Program-made: the position numbers and the translations under genes
DNA from: an uncultured cyanobacterium
GTDB lineage: Bacteria > Cyanobacteriota > Cyanobacteriia > Cyanobacteriales > CAWCAG01
Assembly (NCBI GenBank): GCA_963793425.1
Contig: CAWCAG010000005.1
Span: 192,001-256,000, forward strand
Direction of reading: 5' to 3'
DNA length: 64,000 nt
In this document: positions 34,690 through 48,740 of the stretch, in pieces
How positions within the stretch are numbered: the stretch's first letter is position 1
Layout: each line of letters begins with the position of its first letter
Notes under the pieces: generated by a model
Database searches by the model: none
Seen by the model: the letters and a program-made list of their open reading frames with translations, nothing else
What the model was told of the DNA's origin: nothing

Positions 34690-36146
34690 ATGAAAATTCA
34701 CTGCACCCGTCCTGGTTGTCCCCGACCAGAAAACTTTTTTGCCGATCTTGATGACGAAAATACCCTAATTACCACCCAGCAGAAGTATTGTACTTCTTGC
34801 GGAATGCCTCTGATTTTAGCAGGGCGTTATATTCCCTCAAGACTCCTCGGAAAAGGAGGTTTTGGTGCAGCATTTTTGCCCGCGATCGCTATACTCCCAC
34901 TAAGCGTCAGTGCGTAGCGAAACAGTTTCAACCTCCTGCCAATCTTAATCCTCAACAGTTACAAATTGCTAAAACCCTTTTTGAAAGAGAAGCTGAGGTT
35001 TTGGAGCAGTTGGGAAATGAGCATCCCCAAATCCCTAATTTATATGCCTTTTTTCCCCTGATTGTTCCAGGTATCAAATCTAGTGGAGATGACCAATTTT
35101 TCTATTTGGTACAGAAGTTTATTGATGGAGAAGATTTAGAACACGAATTGGCTCGTAAGGGTAAATTAACAGAAGAGGAAATTAGAGAAATTCTCAGGGA
35201 AGTCCTGAAAGTTCTTAGCTTCGTTCACACCAACGGCTCTATTCACCGAGATATTAAACCCTCCAATATTATGCGGGAGAAGGGAGGGCGTTTATATTTA
35301 TTAGATTTTGGTGCAGTGAAGCAAGTAACCAATGCCCCAGGGGCAGCCGCAGGAAGATCCACAGGCATTTTCTCCATGGGCTTTGCTCCTCCAGAACAAA
35401 TGGCAGGTTCTCAAGTTTATCCTTCTACAGACTTATATGCTTTAGCCGCAACTTGTCTTAATTTACTTACAGGTAAAGATACAGAAGAATTATACGATTC
35501 CTACAATAATAACTGGGACTGGAAACCCCAAGCACAGGGAGTTAGTCCTCAACTAGCTGAAGTTCTTGATAAGATGTTACGGCGTACTCCTCGTGAACGA
35601 TTTCAAAGCGCCCAAGAGGTTTTGGATGCCCTCAAACCTCCTCAAAAATATAGTCCGCCACCGCCACCCCCTACACGTACACCTACTCCTACTCCTAAAC
35701 CAACCCCAACTCCCCCTCCAATTCAGCAGCCTCCACCTGTAACAACTCCTGCCCCTACACCAGTTCAGTCTCCAGTCAAAGTCAAACAAGGTATGACTTT
35801 TTCTTTGATAGAGACTCTGGGTGCGGCTGCTTTTACTGGTTTTGAGGGAGGACTACTATTTGTCGCTTTTGATAGCTTATTCGACTCGCCAGGGGTGAGT
35901 ATGGGGCTTTTTGGTATGGTACTGGCAGGACTCATTTTTGCTGAATTTCGTCGCTTTATTGAAAAGTGGGATTTTACTATTATTGGAGTAATTACTCTGC
36001 TATTGGTAATGTTTGTTCCTTTGCTCAATGATGCTGTAGGAGATAAAGCTATTATCTTAGGCATAGCTATTTTTGCTGCCGCCGCCGCAGTAGCAATTAC
36101 CGCTCTTTTCCGCTTGATTTATTTGTTGTTATCTAAGTTTCTTTAA
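34690..36146 (+). pseudogene. membrane-anchored Ser/Thr kinase with N-terminal 4-Cys prefix, split by a 1-nt frameshift at ~34875 (possibly a sequencing error)
   Basis: CTRPGC...CTSC and LGKGGFG in ORF1; adding one base gives AFLARDRY and joins HRDIKPSN, DFG, Pro linker and TM tail. Confidence 0.85.
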
Positions 36147-36354
36147 GCTTCAAATTCAGCCACCTCAAAAACGGGGAACTACCCTTAACTGTAATCGGGG
36201 AAACCAATACCGCCACAATTAACCTGTGCTAGTAAACTGAATCTAGTATGACTCATCATCATATATAGTGATGATATTCTTCTATAGACTTCTAGGATAA
36301 AAAGTAGAGAATAATTGTCCTAAACACTATGTTGACTGCATAAGCGAAATAACA

Positions 36355-36570
36355 ATGGTTAAAAAAGAAGAGCAAACCTCCCCCCAACCTGCCCAAAAGA
36401 CACAACAAGAAGAATATCAAGAAGCACTATTAAAAACAGGTATTCAAGCAGCAAACTTACTCACCGAATTAATAGACTTAAAAATCATGCCAGACCCCCG
36501 CGCGAAAGAAATGGCTGATGTGGCTATAGAAGTAATTAAATTAGTAAATTCTCAATCTAGAGATACTTAA
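36355..36570 (+). CDS. small hypothetical protein, copy 1 (upstream of toxin locus)
   Basis: 71-aa ORF; paralogue at 46311-46524 differs mostly at synonymous sites. Confidence 0.75.
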   Translation: MVKKEEQTSPQPAQKTQQEEYQEALLKTGIQAANLLTELIDLKIMPDPRAKEMADVAIEVIKLVNSQSRDT

Positions 36571-36813
36571 ACTATCAACAAGAAGCCCAACAACTTAATA
36601 CTAACTTTGAAGCAATAGATGATGGCAGTATAATAATTTATAAATTTCCGCAATCTTAGTTTCTGAGCAGGAGAAAACTAGGGAATTGCTCTGACGATAA
36701 AGTACATTTCTTCCCAAGTTGCCAAAAATTGGTGGTAAAGTAGGAAAAATTGCTCTGGGGTAAAAATCTTAGGGCAAAAGGCTTAACTTGGCAAAAGTTC
36801 CCCAGGATGAATA

Positions 36814-39800
36814 ATGGCTAGCTACGAACCAATCAAAAAGCCCAGTTTTCAACCTCCCCAGCATTCCCAACCATCAAAACAACAGCATCACCAAGTCCCA
36901 CCGCCGCAGCAAAAAAAGGGACAAAGCCTAGAAGAAATGGAAATAAGTCGCAAAAATGCCGAACGCCTTGGCGACCATATAGTTAACTTTTCTAAATCGG
37001 CTCCAACTCCAGCAATTCAAAGCAAATCAACCACAGAAAAACTTGGAGATAACAATGAGCAAGAAACTGAAGCTGTAGAAACTGAAGTAGTAAAGACAAG
37101 TAACACTCCTTCTACTCCTGAAACTCCTAAAGATAGTAACAATCAAGAAAATCCAGAAGGAATCAATGAAGGTACAACCTCACCAGAAACCTCAATTTGG
37201 TTACAACGTTCTCAGAATCTAGTCTTACAACAGCAGCAACAAAAGCAAGCTTTACTAGCACAAATGGGGGAAAGGTATCAAAGATTTCAAGCCGTAGGTA
37301 GTAATCTTTATAGCCCTGAAACAACATCTCAACTCCAGTCAGAAAACTTAACAGGAGAAGAAGTTCGCCTAGAAAACATTGAACCATCACAGATAAGTAG
37401 CACTCCCTCCACCCCAGAGCAAAACGATTCGGGCGCATCGATTCAAACTAAGTGTGATGTTTGTGAAGCTAAAGAAAAAGAAGAAACCTCAGAAGTACAA
37501 GCCAAACTAACAGTAGGACAACCAGGGGACAAATACGAAACCGAAGCAGATACCACAGCAGCCGAAGTTGTAAAACAAATCAACTCTCCAGCAACTGAGG
37601 AATCAGTATCAGAAAAGGTAGAACCAGTAGACCAACCGACGGTAATGCGTCATGGTGGAGAGCAAGGAGGAGGAGTAGACTCTGGTGTAGAGCAAAATAT
37701 TCAAGGAGCCAAAGGTAGTGGGCAGGAACTATCTGAAAAGATTAAAGAGCCGATGGAGCAGGCATTTGGGTCTGACTTCAGTCAAGTTAAAGTGCATACC
37801 GACGGTAATGCCAATCAGTTGAATCGCTCCTTAAATTCGCGGGCATTTGCTACAGGGCAGGACATCTTTTTCAAACAAGGAGAATACAACCCTGAGAATA
37901 CAAGTGGACAGGAATTGATAGCCCACGAATTAACTCATGTTGTACAGCAAAATGGTAGTAAAGTTCAACGTAAGTCAGATAACGAGCAACAAGACATTAG
38001 TTCAAAAGCAAATCAGGAATTGGGGAAGTAGAAACAGAAGCAAACACAAAAGAAATAGAAGTTCAAGCTATTGAACAACCTTCACTAGACAATCCTACTC
38101 AACCTCAGCAAAAAGAAAATCTCCAGAATCATCAACCGACAGAACCTCAGCCAGAAACTAAACCCCAAGAAAACCCTCCAAAGCTCAACCAGAGAATAAG
38201 TTAAACAAATCAATAGCCAAACTACCTCAAAAAGAAAACAAACTAACAAAAGCAGAAAACAAAATTGCTGATGCAAGCCTAAAACTAGGAATTAAAGCCA
38301 AAGTAATTGACCAAAAAGAAACTCAGTCACAAAAAGAAAACAAAGAGCCAAACAAACTCAACCAACCTGAAAACCAGGAAGTAGACTCAGCAGCAACACC
38401 TCCTACAACGGAAGAAGAAACTCAACAGCAAGCGAACCAAGAAGAAACACAAGCCCATAACCCGGAAGCGCCACAAGAAACAGAAGGTAATAGTATTGCC
38501 GTAGACATCCCAACCCCCAACTTATCTCAAAGAGATTCGGGTGTTTCTTTAGCAGATATGTGGCAACAACAGCAGGAGCAAAGTGACAATGCTGGTGGTA
38601 ACTTTGCCCAAGGCAGATCCAACAAAGAACCTAAAGCTGCATTAGAAGAAGCTCTTGCAACAAGCTCAACAAAAACTTACATCTCATTCCTCAACCGGTG
38701 CAAACCTACCAAAATCTGCATCTTTGCCTCAACCTCAAGTTGAGCAAGTTGAAAAACCCCCAACGGAAACTGCTGCTACTACAGAAGCTCCTGCTGTTAC
38801 CGACTCTGTTGCAGAAGCTACTTCTCTAGAAGAAAAACCAACAGATGTTGAAGCCGTTGCAGGAAGTTCTGAGCAAGTCACAGAAGTAGCAAAGGAAGGA
38901 GAAGCATCACCAGAGAAAGAGAAAGAATCAAGCTCCTGGTGAAACTGTACCTCAAACAGAAGAAAAAGTATCTTCGGAAACTGAAGCAGAATTAGAAGTA
39001 AAGGAAACAGAAGAGCCAATAGCTACAGAAGTAAAAGAGGAAGAAGTAGAAGTTCCTGAAGCTCAGGAAAAGCAAGCAGAAACAGAAGTTGAGGCTGAGG
39101 TTAAAGTAGCAGAAGAAGCTCTCACAGAGAATAGCCTTTCTCAACAAGAAGTTCAATCTGGTCAAGTTATTCAAAAGAGTGATGATGGCGACAACGAGGC
39201 TAATTTAATAGCCAAAGCCAAAGGTGTCTTAAACTCTTTGCGGGGTGATGCTCAAGGTAAGAAAGGTAAATTGCAAGGAGATGCTTCTGGGAAAAAGGGT
39301 CAAATAGATGGGGCAAAGCAGCAGCAAGGTAGTCAGATAGATGCTGGCAAGCAGGCAAAGGGTGCTGAATTAGATGCTGGCAAACAAGCGAAGGGGGCTG
39401 AATTAGATGCTGGCAAACAAGCGAAGGGGGCTGAATTAGATGCTGGCAAACAAGCAAAAGGTGCTGAATTAGATGCTGGCAAGCAGGCAAAGGGAGCTGA
39501 ATTAGATGCTGGCAAACAAGCAAAAGGTGCTGAATTAGATGCTGGCAAGCAGGCAAAGGGAGCTGAATTAGATGCTGGCAAACAAGCGAAGGGGGCTGAA
39601 TTAGATGCCGACAAACAAACCAAAGGTGCGGAACTTCAATCAGCAGTAGAAGGAAAAGGTAGTGAAGTAGAAGCAGGAAGCCAAGCTAAAGGAAACGAAC
39701 TGCAAACCGAAGCTCAAACCAAAGCGGCTGAATTGCAGGGGGAAGAAGCAGGGTTAAAACAAGAAACCACAGCTAAAGAACAAGAAATACAGACCAACGT

Positions 39801-42531
39801 TGGTAATCAAGTTGCATCCTTAGAAAATCAAGCTCTTGCAGGTAAAGGGCAAATCGAAAGTAGTTGGGCAGCCTTAGAAAGTAGTGCCACCACTCAAATG
39901 ACCGGGCTAGAAACAGAAGCCCAACAGTTTTCGCAAACCTACATGGCCAAAGCCCAAAGCTTCGTAGCTAAAGTTAATAACACTCCTCAAGGACAAGGGG
40001 ATAGTCAAGCCTTACAAGCAGAATGGCAGGGCTTAAAAACAGAAGTAGAATCAGTTTGGGGTGGAATTGAAAGTAAAGTCGCCCCGGTTAGCCAAAAAGT
40101 AGAGCAGGATTGGCAAGGATTAAATCAAAAAGCCCAAAACTTAACAGGACAAATCCAACAACAAGGGCAACAGGTTCAAGCCTCTGTCAACCAATCTGTA
40201 AGTAACATCGGGGGTCAATTCAGCTCCAAATGGGCAAACTTAACCAACAAAGCCTCCCAAGGACTAGCCAACTTCCAGGGTAAAATTGGGGCAGCAGAAG
40301 CTTGGGTAAGTAGTAAAGTTAGTAACCTTGGTAGCTGGGCAGCAGAGAAAACGGGAGCAGCCACAGCTTGGTTAAGTGCCAAAACCAGTGGTGCAGGAGC
40401 TTGGGCAGAAGAGAAAGTAGCCACAGCCTCTAGTTGGTTAGGAGAAAAAGTCAACGTTGCTAACAGTTGGCTAGGGGAGAAAACCAGTAGTGTAACCTCT
40501 TGGGTTACTGAAAAAGCTAGTAGTGCTGGAACCTTCATCAGTGGAAAAGCTACTCAAGCCACCTCTTGGTTAACCCAGAAAAGTAGTAACGCTGCCAACT
40601 GGCTAACCCAGAAAGGAGCCACCGCCCAAAGTTGGTTAGCTCAAAAAGGAGCCACCGCAGTCAGTGCTGTAACCCAAAAAGCCAGTTCCTTTAGCAGTGG
40701 TTTACAAGCTAAAGGAGCAAGCGCAGCTTCGAGTATCCAATCCAAAGGAAGTTCCATCTTAAAATGGTTAGGAGGTGCAGTAGGTTCAGTAGTATCAGGG
40801 GTACAAAGTAAAGCTAGTAGCTTGGTATCAGGATTACAAAGTAAAGTATCTAGTGCTGCTAGTTGGGTACAACAGAAGAGTAGCAGTGCCACGAGTTGGT
40901 TAACCAGTAAAGCCAGTAGTGCAGCAAGTTGGGCGCAACAGAAGAGTAGTAGTGCCTTAAGTTGGCTATCTAGTAAAGCAAGTAGTGCAACGAGTTGGGT
41001 ACAAAACAAAGGTTCTCAGAGTGTAAGTTGGTTACAACAAAAAAGTAGTACTGTTGGTAGTTGGGTACAAAACAAAAGTTCCCAGTCTTTAAATTGGCTC
41101 CAACAAAAAGGAAGTGCCGTTGGTAGTTGGCTACAAAACAAAGCATCTCAAGGGGTAAACTGGCTCCGGGAAAAAGGAACTGCTGTTGGTAATTGGGTTA
41201 AAGAAAAAGGCTCCCAAGCTTGGGAGGGAGTGAAGCAATTAGGAGAATTAGGTAACAAGGCTCTGCGATTTGCTGGTAATGGTATTAAAGCGGGTTGGCA
41301 GTGGAGTAAAAATAAAGCTGGGGAGATTAAGAGTTGGGCGGTACAGAAAGCCTCTCAAGGATTAGCCTGGGCTAACAATAAGTTATCCCAAGGTTGGAAT
41401 TGGGTACAGGATAAATGGGGTGCTGTTAGCAAATGGTTGAGTGAGCGCTATTCAACTATCAGCGCTTGGGGACATGGCATTTTGGATTTTGTAGGTATTG
41501 CTGGAGACTTTATACCTGGAATAGGAAACCTAGTTGCTTTTGGTGCTGATGCTATAAACACTCTTTGGTATGCAGCAGAAGGTGATTGGACAAATGCTGG
41601 CTTATCAGCAGTTGCCATGATTCCTTATTTAGGTTGGGGAGCAAAAGGTGGTAAATATGCTAGTAAAGGTCTTAAATATGCAGATGACATTGCAGAATTA
41701 GCGACTAAGTATGGCGATGAGGCGATGGAGTTATTTACTAAGTATGGTGATGAAATTGCTCCATTGATTAAAAATGGCCCTGAAGTAGTAGAAGCCATTA
41801 TCAAAAATCCAGAAGCTGCGGAATTATTCATCAAGCATGGGGATGATGTCATTGCGAAGTACGGCGATGATGGTATTCAAATGTTATCCCAAGGAATACT
41901 AGCAAAACGAGTAGCTTCTGATGGTCATACTCTAAAAGTTCTGGCAAATGGGAAGATAGTACGTTGTTCAACTTGTGGGGAACTTGCTGAAAAGTTTGCA
42001 GAAGAATTAGCAGATCCTAAAAATAAACAACTAGCTGAATGGTTTAGGAGTGTTCAGTCAAGAGCGGCAAAAAATCCAGAAGCAGTCGCTGATGAAGTAA
42101 AAATTATTGAACAGCAGTTACAAAGTGTTAAACAAACAAAACAAAAAGCACCAACAAAAGTTGTTTCTCCAACTGCTAAACCCAAGAAAAGTAGTGGTAA
42201 GTTACCGCAGGATATAGGGAAAATGATGAAAAGCCAGAAAATAGCTCCCGATATCCTCAACAAAGGAGTACACTTCAATGTTGGCAAAGTTGAACTCAAA
42301 CTTGTGCCTTCAGGAAGTAGTTTTAAGTTAGAACCTGTTTTCAGTAGTTATAAAGAAGTAGATGTTGCTAATGCTGTTCGCAAAGCAACAGAAGCTTTAG
42401 ATAACTCTCAATTTCAGAAATGGCTTCTGAAGCACGCAAAAGCTGGTCTGGGAATGGCACAGCAAGCAGAAAAAACAAAGAGAGCAAAATACTTTAACGA
42501 GGTTATCAAAATTCTCGAAGAAACACAATGA
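36814..42531 (+). CDS. DUF4157 (eCIS core) polymorphic toxin carrier, ~1,905 codons when four frameshifts (~38024, ~38180, ~38656, ~38928) are bridged
   Basis: QAKLTVGQPGDKYE.EAD and MEQAFGSDFSQVKVH...AFATGQDIFF...LIAHELTHVVQQ; contiguous E/Q-rich frames link to ORF 39238-42531 with repeats, HGILDFVG pre-toxin segment and variable tip. Confidence 0.82.
39337..39633 (+). repeat. nine tandem 33-bp coding repeats encoding (L/I)DAGKQAKGAE
   Basis: ttagatgctggcaa(a/g)ca(a/g)gc.aa.gg.gctgaa x8 plus one degenerate unit; variation mainly at third codon positions. Confidence 0.95.
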
Positions 42532-42983
42532 TTAATATGCAAGTTGATTACTTTACTTTTATCGCAAATGGTGAGTTTGGGCAGTTCAAATTTGGAACTT
42601 TCTGGAATGAAGTTATTAAGGTGTTAGGAGTTCCGCCACTTTATGAACCAGCAGGTGAGGAGACAGCAGCATTAGCACGCTATGGAGACTTAGAATTTGC
42701 AATTCTAGATGAACGAATCGTTACCGTTTCCTTGGATATAAATTACTCTAAAATAGAGCTTCCAACAAACATTATTGTTAAAAACTTCGAGAAGCCTCAA
42801 TTAGAAATAGTAAAAGTACAAGATATCCTAGAAGTACACAACGTTACTTGGGAGCGTATTGAATTCTTATGTGACGACTGGATTGATTATTATCGTACTT
42901 CTACTGGTGTACACCTCTCATTTGGAAAAAAACTACTTGGCAAAGTAGGTGCAGCCAGTCCTGACAAGTTATGGGGTATGTAA
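42528..42983 (+). CDS. putative immunity protein for the main toxin
   Basis: ATGA overlap with the toxin stop; 151 aa; no recognised family. Confidence 0.7.
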   Translation: MINMQVDYFTFIANGEFGQFKFGTFWNEVIKVLGVPPLYEPAGEETAALARYGDLEFAILDERIVTVSLDINYSKIELPTNIIVKNFEKPQLEIVKVQDILEVHNVTWERIEFLCDDWIDYYRTSTGVHLSFGKKLLGKVGAASPDKLWGM

Positions 42984-43020
42984 ACCAGTAATATAATGTA
43001 GCATTTGAGTCAAGTTTAAG

Positions 43021-43394
43021 AACAACTACGACACCATCAGCAAGTAGGGACATGGTATCCTCGATTTCGTTGGCACGGCTGCACCCTTTATCGGTGCAGT
43101 AGCTGGAGGTGTTGCTGGAGGAATAGCTGGTGCAGCAGCAGGCGGTGTAGGGGCAATACCAGGAGCTTTAGCTGGTGCAGGAAAAGGATGGGCTATTGGA
43201 AGTAAGGTAGGTGATATAGCCGATGGTGTCAATGCCGGATGGTATGGCGCAGAAGGGGCATACTATGCTTCACAAGGAGATGAGGAGAAAGCAAAAGACG
43301 CATTTACTAATGCAGCTTTCTCATCAGCAGGTGTAGCACTCCCGTGGGTACTGTAATTCCCAAAGGAGGACCCAAAATAGGGCCGAATAAGTAA
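43021..43394 (+). pseudogene. orphan toxin cassette 1: startless pre-toxin segment with toxin domain deleted
   Basis: NYDTISK*GHGILDFVG...ADGVNAGWYGAE...YYASQGDEEKAK...GVALPWVL*, then an out-of-frame tail GTVIPKGGPKIGPNK* whose TAA overlaps the next ATG. Confidence 0.8.
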
Positions 43395-43756
43395 TGACTT
43401 TCACACACTTTAATATACCTAGTGAACTTGAATTTTTAGAAGCATTTGGTGTAGAACCAAAGAATGCTAAACCTTCTGATGGTTTTTGGGACTATATTTT
43501 TGAAGGAGAGAATGGACTTAGCTTAAGGCTATCTTTCAATCAACATGAAGGCTCGATTCAAACCGCACTAATTCAAGGAAAGTTCGAGATAGCAACTATT
43601 AGCCATGAAGGGGCTGAAAATCTTGAGATTGTTTCAATGGTAAATGGTAACACAAAACTTTTAGGTACTTGTAATTACGGAAATGAGACAATCAATTTGG
43701 TTATCGAAATTAGTCCTAAGTTATATGTTAGTTGGTCATCACTTAAAAATGAGTAA
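43394..43756 (+). CDS. putative orphan immunity protein
   Basis: Intact 120-aa ORF with TAATG coupling to the cassette 1 tail. Confidence 0.7.
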   Translation: MTFTHFNIPSELEFLEAFGVEPKNAKPSDGFWDYIFEGENGLSLRLSFNQHEGSIQTALIQGKFEIATISHEGAENLEIVSMVNGNTKLLGTCNYGNETINLVIEISPKLYVSWSSLKNE

Positions 43757-43796
43757 TGCTTATTTAGGATAATACGGAACTCAGTCAAGATAAAAA

Positions 43797-45323
43797 AACT
43801 ACGACACCATTAGCAAATGGGATCATGGCATCCTCGACTTTGTAGGATTAACAGCCCCGTTTGTAGGAGCAGGCATCGGCTTCATCCTTGGTGGTCCTCC
43901 AGGGGCAACAGCAGGGTGAGCTGCCGGAGAAGTAGTTGGTAACATAGCTGATGCAGCCAATACAGGTTGGTATGGTAGTGAAGCAACTTACTATGCTTCC
44001 CAAGGAGATGAGGAGAAAGCTAAAGAAGCCTCAGTCAATGCGGCTTTTTCTGGAGCAGGCGTGGCTCTACCTTTGGTAGGTGGACGTGCGCTCAAGTGGC
44101 TGGGTAAAACCAAGGCCGGTAAGTTGGCAGGAGAGGGATTCCAGGCTTTGGGTAAGAGCAAGGTAGGTAAGTTAACCGGAGAGGGTCTGGAGTGGGCAGG
44201 TAAGCAAGGAAGTAAAGGAGTAGATTGGGCAGCTAAGCAAAGGGAGAATGTGATTGAGTGGGGTGGTAAGGCTGTTAAGGGGGCAGGTGAGCGTGGTAAG
44301 GAGATGCTTAGACCTGTCGATGAGTTGCTGACTGGGCGTAACATGGAGATGGTGGGTGTCCCTGGGGGAGGGAAACCCAGGGCTAGTACTCCGAAACCTG
44401 CACCTCATGCTCCTAGACCTAATGCTAGTAAGCCGACTAATGCTGGCAAGGTTAAACCAGAAGGAACTGATGAAATAGCCAATGCTGAAAAGGTTGCAGA
44501 TGATCCTGAAGCGGTGAAAACCCTAACGGATACTGCTCCTAAACAGCGACTAGATGACTTATCTTCCAAAGAGTTGGATACAGAGTTGGAGTTGGCAGGA
44601 GATTTACCCCGTAAGCAAATTAATGAGCCGCCTTACATTGAGGAGGTAGAACTTCCCAACGGACATGAATGGAAGCGTCAAGAAGATGGAACTTGGTGTC
44701 GTTTTTCTGAGCCGAAAGGTGATAATTGTTTGTATTCTGATGCTAAAGAATTAGTCGATACAGTTAACAAAGATGCCCAAGAGGTAATAGCAGGAACAGG
44801 CAAAAATCAAAGAAGAAAGATGGCTGCAACTTCTAGGGCTGGTTCCTCAGAATCTGGAACAATCACCCAGCATTTTGAGAATATAAAACCCACTCAGCCC
44901 ACTCATGAATTTCCGGGATTTGAAGTGACAGACAAATTAGATGATGGTTTTGTGATAACTGTGAAATCTCCAGATAAATTTATGGAGGAGCTGACCATTA
45001 TTTATGACAGGCAGGGAACAACCCTACATCCAAAGCTAGAAGAGAAAATCCGAAATTTAGTCAGTGGAAAGGGAAGAACATTCTCAAGTAGAGACGGAGT
45101 TCCAGGACTTCATGCTGAAGTTCTGGCGGTTAATGCAGAACTTCATAAATTAACTGAGAAGGGAGAGGAAATTACAGAAGAAGTACTTAAAAAAATAGAT
45201 GTTGCAACATATAGAGTTACTCCCAATCCAAAAAACTTGGAAGGAAAGCCTTTTCCAGCTTGCCCTAATTGCACCAAAATACTACAAGATAACAACATAC
45301 TAACTGGAGTAACAGAAAAATAA
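43797..45323 (+). pseudogene. orphan toxin cassette 2 with C-terminal YwqJ-like deaminase domain (startless; TGA at 43917; open from there through ORF 44061-45323)
   Basis: NYDTISKWDHGILDFVG...; deaminase motifs GLHAEVLAVN and PFPACPNC. Confidence 0.82.
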
Positions 45324-46234
45324 TGCTGATGATAAATATCAAGGAACTAAGTTGTATTAAAAATAAATATTTTTATGAAGAACAACTGTTTACCGGAGTT
45401 GGATTTAGCACTTCTGGTGAAAAAGTTAATAATTTCAACAAATTTGAGAATGGAATTAACGTTGGTGCTTACCAATGTAAGTATTTTCCCAATAAAATAA
45501 GTATTCCTCATATAAACATAGATTATATTGACTTCACAGGAGAATTCTTAGATGCTTTTGCACTTTACAAAAACAAAAAATTTTCTGGCATTGCCTATGA
45601 GCTAGAAGATGAGGAAGATGTTTGTTTAGCCAAGCATCTTTTCAAAGATGGAGTACCAGTTGGTTCAATATCTTGGCATTCATCCGGTGAGAAAAAAAGT
45701 TTAAGACTTGAGCGAGAAGGTATTGTTCAGGTTTTTGGATGGTTCCCAGATGGTGCTTTAAAAGAAATGGAACTGTACTCTCAAGAGCAGAGTGAGAGAC
45801 TCATTAATGTTAGCTTCAATCAACCAAAACAGCTAAGAAATGTATGGATAGAAGAGAGTTATTTTGAGTGGATACCTAAGTATACAGCTAAACTTGAATT
45901 TCATTACCTTGAAACCGTAGATTCATTTAAAGATTTCACCATAAGTCCTACTTTTTCTTTAGTTGGTTTAGGAATAAACGATGCAGTATTTTGTGCTATT
46001 GGTTCCAATAAAAAATTTGGAAATTTATCTAAAATTACCATATCGAGAACTTCTATAAGTGAAGAAAGTTTCCTCAAGTTAGCAAACATAAATACTCTTA
46101 ACGAAGTTATTATCCGTGACAAAAATCGCCATTTAACAAATATTGCGAAAAATTTGAAGTCTATACGAAAAGATTGTTTGATAAAATTGAACGGACAAGA
46201 AATAATGGTATTTTATAATGCATTGAAGGAATGA
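45323..46234 (+). CDS. putative immunity protein with MORN-variant (YwqK-like) repeats and LRR-like tail
   Basis: TAATG coupling; Y....FTG/FSG repeats, FKDG.P.G...W..SG.KK; L..L.I..T.IS...F..LA tail. Confidence 0.7.
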   Translation: MLMINIKELSCIKNKYFYEEQLFTGVGFSTSGEKVNNFNKFENGINVGAYQCKYFPNKISIPHINIDYIDFTGEFLDAFALYKNKKFSGIAYELEDEEDVCLAKHLFKDGVPVGSISWHSSGEKKSLRLEREGIVQVFGWFPDGALKEMELYSQEQSERLINVSFNQPKQLRNVWIEESYFEWIPKYTAKLEFHYLETVDSFKDFTISPTFSLVGLGINDAVFCAIGSNKKFGNLSKITISRTSISEESFLKLANINTLNEVIIRDKNRHLTNIAKNLKSIRKDCLIKLNGQEIMVFYNALKE

Positions 46235-46310
46235 TGTCCTTTTGAAACTTTTAGAATAACAAGTGTAGAAATTTTTCTCAATATGATATTTATTGTCTAA
46301 GAAAACAACT

Positions 46311-46524
46311 ATGGTTAAAAAAGAAGACCCAACTCCTACCTCCACCTCCCCAAAAAACATTACAAGAAGAATATCAAGAAGCTTTGTTAAAAACTGGTAT
46401 TCAAGCAGCTAACTTACTCACGGAATTAATTGACTTAAAAATTATGCCAGACCCCCGTGCCAAAGAAATGGCTGATGTGGCTATAGAAGTGATTAAATTA
46501 GTCAATAATAAAAATATAGCGTAA
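46311..46524 (+). pseudogene. small hypothetical protein, copy 2 (+1 frameshift in the C/A-rich 5' part; may be a sequencing error)
   Basis: MVKKE... then QEEYQEALLKTGIQAANLLTELIDLKIMPDPRAKEMADVAIEVIKLVN, identical in amino acids to copy 1. Confidence 0.85.
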
Positions 46525-46871
46525 ATGGGCGTTGGTAAATGAAGGTATGATGCGATTGCCCTCCGCTCATTACCAGAGGTAAACCCTAAACAAGAAAAAG
46601 TCTCTTGGTGTAAGGTACTGGAACATCCCGGAATTTAAGATAGTGAATTAGTAATTTATCGGTTATATACAGACGGTGGAGGTAATCATGATGTTATGGT
46701 TGCTTTGCAAAAACGTCATCATGTCCTTGTTACTCCAACTTAATCAATTTTCTCGACACCTTAACTGTAGTTGAAAAAAAGTTAATATTGCGTGAGAGCA
46801 TTTGGGAGTATTTGGCAGGAAATGGAAGTATGCAAAGAGAAAATAAAGAAATTAAAAACAGATGAATATGA

Positions 46872-48740
46872 TTATTCATCTAATCTTGGTGTTACAGAAA
46901 TATCAAGTTGGTAATTTACCGATTCTCCTGCTTGAGAAACTACCACAAACTCATAAACTCCCGACTCTGACAACTCATTCCACCAACTATGTTCCAGGGA
47001 ATCCTCTAAAACCGCTTCACCGCCGGCAGGAGGGTAAATAGAGAAAAGGACTCCCCTTGGGGCAGTTAAATCAACTCTGACAAACTCACCAGCTTCTAAT
47101 TCCCCAATATAAACTTGTCCTCCTCCCGGTGCTAATTCTTTACTATCTTCATAGGAAGTTTGAGCTGCTGTTAAGCTAATTTTTTCTAACCCTTGTCCAG
47201 ATTGCAAAGCTTTGAGTTTATCCAAAACAATGCCATGCCAAATTTGACCGATAGAAGTATCAAGAAAATCTTCCTGGGCTTGTTGAGGAAAGTATTGTAA
47301 GAATTCTCCATCAGCCAAATCAAAAAGAGTCTTACTGCTGAGATTTAATTCATTAGCTTGCCGTTGCCAACCTTGACGATCAGCTTCACGATATTTCCCC
47401 AAACCTCGGCGGGCTTCAGGAGAAAGGAATGCCAATTCCTCTAAGGTTTCCGAAGCGATTTTGTCCCAATTCGCACGTAATTGTGCATCTTCTGCTTCTT
47501 CAGTGAGGATGCGTCCTTCTTGGGCAGGATATTTTTGCCAAAATTGCTGATTGATTAATTCTAAGTAAAAATCGTAGTTAATACCCAAGTTAAGGCGCTT
47601 TTCCCTTAATTCTTGTTTACGTTGTCTTTCTTGGGAGGAAAGATTAAGAGAAGGTTGTGGTTCGGCATCGTCGATATCAGGAAAGCTAAGTTTTTTGGGG
47701 TCTTCTGATGCGGAGTTTTCCTCAGTTTTGTTGATTTGGTGTTCTATCCAAGTGCGGCCAGCAAACCAACCGATTAAAGCGGAACTGGCAATGAGTAGTA
47801 AGAGAAGGGAAATTTGACCTAATAGCTTGCCTACAGGTTTACTTTTGGTGAGGAAATAGGAAGATTGGGCTTGAACGATGGCCGGAAAATTTTGAGGAGA
47901 AGGCTGGGGAGGATGATCAAGATCATGGAGAACTTCAGTCGCTTCTTGATAGCGATCGCCTGATTCTTGGCTAAGCATCTTTTTTAGTACTAGTTGGAAT
48001 TGGGGGGTAAGATTAATTTTTTCCCAATCCCACTGAGATGTTTGACGATTGAAGAGTTGCTGGGGCAGTTTTCCTGTTAGCAGTACTAATGCTGTTACTC
48101 CTAGGGCATATAAATCGCTATGGGTGGCAATAACACCTTCGGTTCGTTGTTCTGGAGGTGCATAACCTAGTTTTCCCCAACCAGGATAATTTTGAGAGGA
48201 GATATTAGCGACAACTTTTCTAATGCCTCCAAAATCAATTAATACTGGTAAAAGATCCCAAGTCCGCAGCAAAATATTATCTGGGCAGATGCAACCGTGA
48301 ATTACTCCTTGATTGTGGATATATTGTAGTAAAGGTAAAATTTGCTTGAATAATGTGATGACTTCCTCTTCATCAAAGCAATGGCCTTGGCTTTTATGAG
48401 TTTCTAAAAAAGTACGATAGCTATGACCTTCTACATAATCTTGCACCAAAAAGAGGCGCTTTTTTTCGGCCTGCTTGTGGTGAAATAGTTCTCGAAAAGA
48501 AGGGATTTGGGGGTGTTTGAGTTGGTGGAGAAGTTTAAATTCTATGTGCAGTAACTTTTCTGCTTTAGCCCCATGGCGACTATCCGCCCCTGGAACAACT
48601 AATTCTTTAAGAATCCTAGTACCATGACCATTACTGACATCTTTTGCTAAGTAAGTATGACCCAGCTTGCTTTTGCTTAACTGACGCAAAATTCGATAGC
48701 GATCGCTTAAAATTTCTCCTGTAGTTATGGAACTAGACAT
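46872..48740 (-). CDS. membrane-anchored Ser/Thr kinase-like protein with extracytoplasmic C-terminal domain; probable pseudokinase
   Basis: Kinase fold (HPQIP, DFG, GYAPPEQ, SDLYALG) but catalytic loop HGCICPDN; one TM helix. Confidence 0.82.
   Translation of the reverse strand: MSSSITTGEILSDRYRILRQLSKSKLGHTYLAKDVSNGHGTRILKELVVPGADSRHGAKAEKLLHIEFKLLHQLKHPQIPSFRELFHHKQAEKKRLFLVQDYVEGHSYRTFLETHKSQGHCFDEEEVITLFKQILPLLQYIHNQGVIHGCICPDNILLRTWDLLPVLIDFGGIRKVVANISSQNYPGWGKLGYAPPEQRTEGVIATHSDLYALGVTALVLLTGKLPQQLFNRQTSQWDWEKINLTPQFQLVLKKMLSQESGDRYQEATEVLHDLDHPPQPSPQNFPAIVQAQSSYFLTKSKPVGKLLGQISLLLLLIASSALIGWFAGRTWIEHQINKTEENSASEDPKKLSFPDIDDAEPQPSLNLSSQERQRKQELREKRLNLGINYDFYLELINQQFWQKYPAQEGRILTEEAEDAQLRANWDKIASETLEELAFLSPEARRGLGKYREADRQGWQRQANELNLSSKTLFDLADGEFLQYFPQQAQEDFLDTSIGQIWHGIVLDKLKALQSGQGLEKISLTAAQTSYEDSKELAPGGGQVYIGELEAGEFVRVDLTAPRGVLFSIYPPAGGEAVLEDSLEHSWWNELSESGVYEFVVVSQAGESVNYQLDISVTPRLDE

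Follow-up and report, generated by a model that had tools for sequence, protein, structure and literature searches.

Exchanged and displaced C-terminal cassettes at a predicted polymorphic toxin locus of the DUF4157 class in an uncultured cyanobacterium

Why would a giant gene be followed by two gene fragments that have no start codon and that restart at the same stretch of protein found near its own end? The question is raised by a locus at positions 36355-46524 of a 64,000-nt stretch of DNA (the window; 192,001-256,000 of contig CAWCAG010000005.1, assembly GCA_963793425.1) from an uncultured cyanobacterium (CAWCAG01), with all its parts on the + strand. Rhs, CdiA, MafB and LXG loci are known for orphan toxin-immunity modules. 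A first-pass annotation proposed that the window holds a comparable tip-swapping toxin arsenal on a DUF4157 chassis. The results presented here bear out the swapping, since the C-termini of relatives fall into 11 groups and the junctions lie at the shared stretch, and they speak against the arsenal, because both fragments contain nonsense codons and one no longer has a tip. We read the locus, with a probability of roughly 0.78, as belonging to the PVC-metallopeptidase/DUF4157 class of polymorphic toxin loci, in a cyanobacterium of filamentous type; its C-terminal cassettes have been exchanged, its displaced tips have decayed, and its products would be toxic, protective or exported as set out below. 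The locus was compared with relatives from six species genomes (Microcoleus, two Coleofasciculus, Symploca and two Microseira), from metagenome contigs and from protein clusters. The whole metagenome-derived genome (G000, 5.28 Mb) was surveyed, and contigs from four metagenome runs of one study (X1-X4), which prove the presence of a variant and never its absence, were used as a short-read check.

The main gene, or carrier, extends over about 1,900 codons (36814-42531) once the frame breaks described below are disregarded. Its first part, a 405-aa open reading frame (ORF) at 36814-38031, begins with a leader containing a CxxC motif and holds a zincin-like eCIS_core (DUF4157) domain at residues 306-381 (nt 37729-37956). 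With an E-value of 1.8e-31 and 108.6 bits against a Pfam cut-off of 22, this domain belongs to PF13699. It is followed by an A-rich linker of about 900 nt that codes for acidic sequence (38001-38942) and by the repeat body (38890-41430), in which tandem 33-nt repeats (39236-39726) and further 66-nt repeats were found and which continues as about 800 aa of 11-residue amphipathic repeats. An open frame of 1,213 codons (38890-42531) holds this body, the pre-toxin block and the tip; its match to apolipoprotein-like repeats (Pfam E 4.1e-10, 40.1 bits) is under the cut-off of 90. The block and the KYGD repeats behind it occupy 41431-41800, an internal Ntox1-like module containing Cys residues 41899-42156 and the final tip of about 115 residues 42169-42531. 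As the annotation had stated, a small ORF is coupled to the carrier: a 151-aa ORF (42528-42983) overlaps its stop codon by ATGA at 42528. In the organisation that we propose, these parts would follow each other in one protein in the order leader, eCIS_core, acidic linker, 11-residue repeats, pre-toxin domain, KYGD repeats, Ntox1-like module and tip, and the overlapping ORF would encode the immunity protein of the tip. In this locus, a predicted trafficking region at the N-terminus, a central repeat body and a predicted toxin at the C-terminus come together with a C-terminus that varies among carriers and with orphan cassettes downstream, the features by which polymorphic toxins in the sense of Zhang et al. 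(2012) are recognised.

The block is a roughly 100-residue, glycine-rich, membrane-like pre-toxin domain. It is present three times in the window, as members of a 79-nt repeat family, at 41443 in the carrier and at 43021 and 43794 in two downstream cassettes without start codons (block-profile E-values 1.1e-58, 5.8e-13 and 6e-10/3e-10, respectively), so that the two restarts at the same block noticed at first pass are real. No fourth copy was found in the 5.28-Mb genome, as a six-frame regular-expression search returned 3 sites and tblastn agreed.

Comparison with orthologous loci, which the annotation had recommended, revealed different tips on similar carriers. The last 130 residues of 17 block-bearing C-termini form 11 groups. 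The tips that could be named include CdiA_C (L013, E 1e-21), Ntox28 (L012, E 2e-40), Ntox21 (P0020), a colicin-E3-type domain (PF09000, precomputed Pfam match of P0004) and a YwqJ deaminase (orphan 2 of the window and P0019). Two Coleofasciculus loci (L002 and L006) are collinear at 90-94% identity to about 510 nt past the block, unrelated across the tip and the downstream ORF, and similar again from the 71-aa gene that follows. Cassettes may also resemble each other more closely than their carriers do, as found for L003 and L002 (93.5% vs 84-90%) and for L001 and L006 (83% vs 71.5%).

The window locus itself is composite. Its repeat body resembles those of the same-genus genome G401 (85-90%) and of Microseira (about 70%) up to position 41503, while homology to relatives with the other, A-type pre-toxin region starts at 41431-41449 and runs through the tip and the 151-aa ORF to 42979 (77% identity to L014). 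The homology of the two orphans to B-type (Microseira-type) carriers starts at 43016 and 43797. Judged by these similarities, the locus is a chimera of a B-type body and an A-type cassette, and the positions at which homology breaks place all three junctions in the conserved 5' end of the block. In G401, which like L002 and L006 provides a different tip on a similar carrier, the carrier body runs straight into sequence 89% identical to orphan 1 (window 43033-43350) and continues in frame past the point where orphan 1 is cut off, into a different tip, a 185-aa ORF and then the 71-aa gene. Going by this alignment, orphan 1 corresponds to what appears as the working C-terminus in G401, and the present cassette of the window (41431-42983) has been placed between the body and its former C-terminal end. 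Together, these comparisons give good support to an exchange of C-terminal cassettes at the block among relatives. In our reading, the swap unit reaches from the pre-toxin block through the candidate immunity gene and is exchanged between strains by recombination, with the conserved 5' end of the block as left junction and the 71-aa gene as right end of the locus. In the window, a B-lineage carrier has taken up an A-lineage cassette at the block, and the incoming cassette has pushed the former C-terminus (orphan 1) and an older deaminase cassette (orphan 2) downstream. Two changes from Trp to stop and one deletion have since disabled the displaced toxin parts. Anatomy, exchange, displacement and decay are shown by the sequences; toxicity, immunity and export are inferred.

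Copies of the 71-aa gene bracket the locus, a feature that the annotation had not named. The upstream copy (36355-36570) and the downstream one (46311-46524) belong to a 250-nt direct repeat (36313-36562 and 46270-46519) and are 78% identical without gaps and 90.6% identical over 159 nt. All 10 related loci long enough to show it (L001-L006, L012-L014 and G401) have a homologue behind the carrier and its downstream ORF; the upstream second copy is confined to the window and was seen in no relative examined. The downstream copy has a 1-nt frame break near 46342, and the X1-X3 contigs, which have one base fewer at this position, mend it (X4 gives no cover there).

The condition of the orphans decides what they are. 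Neither has a start codon, and each begins about 20 nt past the preceding stop with a degenerate remnant of carrier-coding sequence. Orphan 1 (43016-43356), a B-type pre-toxin region, contains a TAG at 43045-43047, just before the block, where every relative has Trp, and the open stretch behind it (43048-43356, 102 codons) has no toxin domain. Next comes a 120-aa ORF (43394-43756), whose start lies in a TAATG that also closes a remnant of 27 codons read in another frame. The remnant in the other frame and the missing tip suggest an internal deletion of the orphan-1 tip, and the 120-aa ORF, which has no Pfam or NCBIfam family and for which one relative was found (120 aa, 73% identity), may by its position be the immunity gene of this lost tip. 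Orphan 2 (43794-45323) is a B-type cassette made of 41-codon and 467-codon stretches in one frame, separated by a TGA at 43917-43919 where Microseira carriers and L033 have Trp. Its tip (nt 44997-45296) belongs to the YwqJ-like deaminases (PF14431, E 1.1e-13, 52 bits against a cut-off of 25.9), retains the HAE and PCxxC motifs and distantly matches the C-terminus of YenC2 (PDB 9c4k chain Q, residues 849-956; E 8.6e-6). A candidate deaminase immunity gene, a 303-aa ORF (45323-46234), is coupled to it by TAATG at 45323 and is considered to be full length because its eight relatives (46-57% identity) measure 295-312 aa. This ORF has no NCBIfam family at E <=1 and no PDB sequence match. A YwqK/MORN-like nature was considered for it and rejected, the Pfam search at E <=0.1 returning only a marginal, sub-cut-off match to RICH (E 0.096). 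The profile check that the annotation had called for was thus positive for eCIS_core and the YwqJ deaminase, both above their Pfam cut-offs, and gave no family for the immunity ORFs. Its description of each cassette as a tip followed by a TAATG-coupled ORF is accurate for orphan 2; orphan 1 has lost its tip and only the remnant meets the TAATG.

If the orphans formed a live arsenal of silent cassettes, they would be intact, promoterless tips ready for recombination onto the carrier. Both indeed start at the junction of the main cassette, their downstream ORFs are open, the deaminase motifs are present in orphan 2, and one low-confidence joint in an X1 contig (41635->43992, 40-nt side) would link the carrier block to this orphan. 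This joint and two others (44031->44332 and 44359->46302) stem from one contig, have sides of 28-40 nt with unknown letters between them, and were taken as unreliable. Independent contigs confirm the nonsense codon at a conserved Trp in both orphans: an X2 contig (42117-43818) and an X3 contig (42905-44009) show 0 differences and together cover both stops. Moreover, the orphan blocks are only 62-73% identical to the carrier block over 79 nt, a poor substrate for homologous recombination, and a crossover at the block would bring the TGA of orphan 2 into the carrier. Since both orphans carry nonsense codons and one is without a tip, the arsenal is not supported; we regard it as very improbable. 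The orphans are relics of displaced tips and not a ready store.

The same contigs bear on whether the array could be an assembly artefact, that is, a chimeric or duplicated join. Single-base indels relative to the contigs are indeed scattered at 34877, 38021-38926 and 46342, but a single X1 contig of 5,488 nt runs without gaps from 40821 to 46308 and differs from the window once, and the X2 and X3 contigs cross the junctions with 0 differences. Neither the array nor the orphan stop codons are therefore assembly artefacts, an explanation to which we give practically no credence. It could also be argued that the orphans go back to small independent toxin genes that decayed, or to tandem duplications, and were never the end of a carrier. 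A B-type cassette in the metagenome locus L033 (9584-11272) has its own ATG 22 codons before the block, no carrier upstream and a large WD40-repeat gene beside it, so that stand-alone short forms exist, and many distant block proteins are only 200-450 aa long. Two tandem block-bearing ORFs were also observed in 7 of 76 metagenome loci (L018, L036, L040, L041, L076, L085 and L087), mostly on short other carriers; the second copies of L076 and L085 begin near the block and look orphan-like. Against an independent origin stand the 89% identity of orphan 1 to the in-frame C-terminal region of a same-genus carrier, the lack of any start codon in the orphans and the carrier-coding remnants at their starts, which make it very improbable, though a little less so than an artefact. 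Displacement by an incoming cassette is retained as the origin of both orphans.

The ORFs behind the tips were then compared across loci. In each of the 12 loci for which DNA is available, the toxin gene is followed by an ORF of 151-303 aa whose start is no more than about 85 nt from the toxin stop. In these 12 loci, 8 groups of downstream ORFs map one to one onto 8 groups of tips, all four pairs of loci with a shared tip also share the downstream ORF, and there is no similarity across groups. Kinship can produce such sharing, and in one pair, L004 and L005, the two members are closely related; in the remaining three, the carriers or other parts of the locus have diverged. The downstream ORFs co-vary one to one with the tips, in the way expected of immunity genes. 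That those behind the orphans are still open would fit selection for immunity to neighbours that still use the corresponding toxins.

The tip of the main gene is itself shared. Its last 130 residues are 88% identical to those of L014, and in L014, too, the tip has a homologue of the 151-aa ORF (75% identity) directly behind it. BLASTP matched the tip to the C-termini of P0001, P0005, P0006 and P0009 (46-67% identity), and it is common to other DUF4157 proteins and an RHS protein. Homologues of the 151-aa ORF were found in 2 of 400 sampled genomes of the phylum, one strong (68% identity) and one marginal (E 6.6e-4). The strong homologue (L008, G208:C38:579-4016) is interrupted by an in-frame TAA and lies in a row of small ORFs on the same strand after a toxin-like C-terminal end, an arrangement that looks like an immunity-gene array. 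The Ntox1-like module of the window (PF15500, E 1.7e-4, 22.3 bits) falls short of the Pfam cut-off of 25 and is not assigned to that family; its homologue in L003 reaches 25.3 bits. The module is internal and precedes different final tips in P0004, P0019 and P0020.

A profile built from eight copies of the block was searched against protein cluster representatives. It matched 2,175 of them at E <=1e-3 and 130 at E <=1e-10, and the top set retained a clear consensus, with a median of 131 residues C-terminal of the block. Proteins with the block also carry PT-HINT, LHH, EndoU, ADP-ribosyltransferase, Tox-REase-9 and other toxin domains, and these domains lay C-terminal of the block wherever coordinates were compared. 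The block stands directly after Rhs-associated cores in P0040 and P0042 and was also found on WXG100/RHS, T7SS-signal and subtilase carriers. Its presence on so many types of carrier makes it the first part of a swappable C-terminal region rather than a part specific to the DUF4157 carrier. Neither Pfam nor NCBIfam has a model for it (0 of 8 members above a Pfam cut-off; best Pfam match DUF6861, E 4.6e-4, in one member). The block thus defines a widespread pre-toxin domain that is unmodelled in the libraries searched, and its hydrophobic, glycine-rich make-up suggests that it acts at the membrane. More speculatively, and with the odds rather against it, the block might be a shared "cassette plug" whose conserved 5' end is the recombination junction at which different delivery systems exchange toxin-immunity cassettes. 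The block would then, in filamentous cyanobacteria, arm cargo of contractile injection for kin discrimination, with the 71-aa gene as a dedicated partner (block chaperone or right-hand anchor). If true, this would be a concrete answer to the question of what cyanobacterial injection systems are for.

Several observations weigh against our reading of the locus as a whole. The three candidate immunity ORFs have no family match in Pfam or NCBIfam. The main tip has no family in these libraries either, its best match in a PDB sequence search has an E-value of about 0.7, and the ESM Atlas gave no usable match; the same absence of a Pfam or NCBIfam family and of a usable ESM Atlas match was noted for the 71-aa gene. 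A second block copy is present in 0 of the 6 species-representative genomes that have this carrier, which leaves this genome as the only one so far with the array. The block family occurs on Rhs, WXG100 and subtilase carriers and, being found on several carrier types, points to no single export route. The injection genes nearest to the locus (C5:326-334 kb) are about 88 kb away. The eCIS_core domain is missing in three of eight carriers (L003, L006 and G401). Finally, substitutions of about 10% separate the linker of the window from the contigs over 38022-38260, its version was seen in the contigs of none of the four runs, and the G401 carrier has two frame breaks of its own.

The last of these points concern the reading frame. 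The annotation had described one giant carrier gene, and its domains, linker, repeats, block and tip were all found, but in the window the frame is broken four times. The carrier is there not a single ORF and passes through frames f1->f3->f2->f3->f1, the linker being open only through four frames, with changes within 38001-38031, 38162-38204, 38646-38743 and 38890-38942. Contigs of the four runs are identical or near-identical to the window over most of the locus, and they differ from it by single-base indels at 38021 (+1), at 38184 (+1), in a cluster at 38606-38696 and at 38926 (-1). The indels of run X1 (+1, +1, +1, +1, +1, -1, -1, +1, -1) restore the frame, each step falling at a frame change of the window; this sum is arithmetic on the listed indels of that run only. 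For X2-X4, seven gaps were counted over this stretch. The homologous linker of G401 is read in one frame, and relatives have carriers that are single ORFs (L004, 2,079 aa; L012, 2,165 aa; L006, 2,055 aa; L003, 1,942 aa); in L004, from Microseira wollei NIES-4236, eCIS_core (residues 309-381) and block lie within one ORF. Assembly errors or a strain variant are the probable cause of the frame breaks. The substitutions and the absence of the window version from the contigs mean that the linker could instead be a genuinely pseudogenised strain variant. Around 39389-39579, the contigs of X1-X3, the three runs with cover here, stop on both sides of the 33-nt array and the summed depth is about double, so that the number of repeats in the window is uncertain.

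Among the eight carriers with N-termini, eCIS_core is present in five (window, L001, L004, L005 and L012). The other three retain the leader with its CxxC motif. The domain cannot therefore be essential in cis, and DUF4157 is not the constant chassis that the annotation had taken it for. In the G401 carrier (L093, G401:C2:366001-386000), an in-frame loss of about 200 codons has deleted the whole domain.

How would such a protein be delivered? Profile searches detected no sheath, tube, gp25 or Baseplate_J match within the window, in agreement with the first-pass annotation, and the genome-wide search for such genes that it had advised found them at three sites outside: two Pvc16_N, a sheath, three tubes and a chaperone-like ORF at C7:39-47 kb; gp25, Baseplate_J and Tail_P2_I at C9:197-202 kb; and a gp19 tube, CIS_tube and a VgrG-like spike at C5:326-334 kb. 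The carrier thus lies neither in nor near an injection operon, whereas 88% of the known toxins associated with extracellular contractile injection systems (eCIS) lie within ten genes of one, according to the part of Danov et al. (2024, PMC11297309) used here. The genome holds 9 eCIS_core genes with different C-termini. The eight others were located at C7:671360-678026, C1:152771-157711, C5:136898-138970, C7:57501-59138, C7:521307-522674 and C7:901612-903231; three form a tandem on C7, and an open frame of 1,646 aa lies on C1. Sequence matching the first 100 or so residues of the carrier is found at 11 further places of the genome, in some cases on ORFs without eCIS_core; C5:1653358, C5:1505962, C5:1674039 and C7:688288 are among these places. 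Such recurrence fits the cargo of one machine, and the leader may serve a family of effectors in common for packaging or export.

The toxin locus could also work without contractile delivery, through lysis, another export route or surface display, eCIS_core then being only a processing peptidase. This would be in keeping with a window free of injection genes, with the spread of such genes over three sites, with the three carriers that have no eCIS_core and with the block on carriers of other secretion types. On the other hand, DUF4157 is strongly linked to injection systems statistically, as stated in the consulted text of Geller et al. (2021, PMC8213781), and excerpts of two studies provide experimental support in a cyanobacterium and in an archaeon. 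In Anabaena, two DUF4157 proteins were detected by mass spectrometry in contractile injection system (CIS) preparations and could not be placed in the structure; no clear effect on the organisms tested and no clear target are reported there (Weiss et al., 2022, PMC8894136). In Halogeometricum, DUF4157 proteins were richer in the secretome of the wild type than in that of a sheath mutant, and two of them were toxic unless co-expressed with the downstream gene (PMC11566945). The genome of the window also encodes a near-complete set of structural families, and the leader is common to 11 other places as expected for the cargo of one machine. Delivery without a contractile system is a serious alternative that we nonetheless hold to be unlikely; export by the dispersed contractile-injection genes of the genome is most likely. 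The targets would most likely be other bacteria, probably kin, given DUF4157 carriers, tips of interbacterial nuclease and deaminase types, the strict co-variation of tip and candidate immunity gene and the traces of cassette exchange. The family of toxins with block and DUF4157 points to such bacteria as targets of cyanobacterial contractile injection systems.

The mechanism that emerges is known, for polymorphic toxins with orphan modules as well as for DUF4157 toxins, and we did not find it described for this class of carrier. As in Rhs, CdiA, MafB and LXG loci, a large carrier with a variable C-terminal toxin is directly followed by an immunity gene, here a candidate one, and startless fragments that begin at a conserved junction keep their immunity genes, here likewise candidates, after the former tip has been displaced by an incoming cassette. 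Unlike in Rhs and CdiA proteins, the carrier has no Rhs/YD or FHA repeats (Pfam E <=0.1) and an acidic linker with 11-residue repeats instead, and the junction in the window is the 5' end of the block, not VENN or PxxxxDPxGL. The 71-aa gene that closes the window locus and the nonsense codons in the orphans set it apart from all four systems. The tip of orphan 2 shares its deaminase family with YwqJ-like toxins, resembles the YenC2 C-terminus distantly and differs in its carrier and in being silenced by the upstream in-frame TGA.

A general template of polymorphic toxins was given by Zhang et al. (2012, PMC3482391), in whose consulted sections PVC-metallopeptidase toxins are defined, noted in Microcoleus chthonoplastes and said to lack immunity genes in many cases. 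The part of Geller et al. (2021) considered here describes an N-terminal DUF4157, linkers that can exceed 1,000 aa and C-terminal toxins. The carrier agrees with the toxins so described in its N-terminal HExxH (PF13699), very long linker, diverse tips, several genes per genome and cyanobacterial host. In contrast to the DUF4157 toxins in the portions of PMC3482391, PMC8213781 and PMC11297309 used here, many of which have no adjacent immunity gene and possibly act on distant organisms, a co-varying ORF lies downstream at every locus here; the interbacterial nuclease and deaminase tips, the distance of the locus from injection genes and the domain missing in three of eight carriers are further differences. 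DUF4157 proteins are shared with the CIS of Anabaena (Alr3311/Alr3312, PMC8894136) and Halogeometricum borinquense (PMC11566945), where proteomics ties them to the CIS. In the archaeal case the downstream gene neutralises the toxin, whereas here it is a candidate by position and co-variation. Those proteins are short and lie in or beside the injection cluster, and the available text of the two papers reports no cassette exchange or orphans for them. A full-text search found no published orphan cassettes for DUF4157 carriers, although the supplements of Zhang et al. (2012) and Geller et al. (2021) could hold examples; the term "orphan" occurs 0 times in the text at hand of PMC8213781 and PMC11297309. 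We did not find described an orphan array on a DUF4157 carrier, the block as junction, the closing 71-aa gene or carriers of this kind without eCIS_core. The displacement of tips known from orphan modules is hereby extended to the DUF4157 carrier class, and such carriers are seen to occur without eCIS_core. Culturable relatives (Microseira, Coleofasciculus and Microcoleus) offer natural tip variants and matched pairs of predicted toxin and immunity protein.

Some minor observations concern the surroundings of the locus. A scan for promoters and terminators over 36000-46900 was uninformative (16 and 8 sites vs 17.8 and 12.4 expected from shuffles). An empty-site comparison with G401 failed, as the flanks are scattered there and not syntenic with the window: the left flank lies at C11:45-52 kb, the right-hand kinase inverted at C11:581 kb and the locus itself on C2. 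Both edges of the locus carry dispersed 32-39-nt repeats (36214-36250 and 46620-46651), which have copies of about 90-96% identity at 5 and 3 further genomic places and account for the fact that the contigs of every run break off or diverge there. The loose contig ends at 36214-36253 and 46620-46655 were considered as alternative island junctions and rejected, being explained by these short repeats. Between the small upstream gene and the start of the carrier, contigs of all four runs also skip a 137-nt segment (36636-36772; joint 36635->36773), which is single-copy in the genome and may reflect either a minor insertion or variation between strains. Upstream, a neighbouring Ser/Thr kinase gene (34690-36146) is split into two frames by a break near 34877. 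An extra G (+1) after 34877 in the X1-X3 contigs rejoins these frames (X4 shows none there), which suggests that single-base indel errors are scattered in the assembly.

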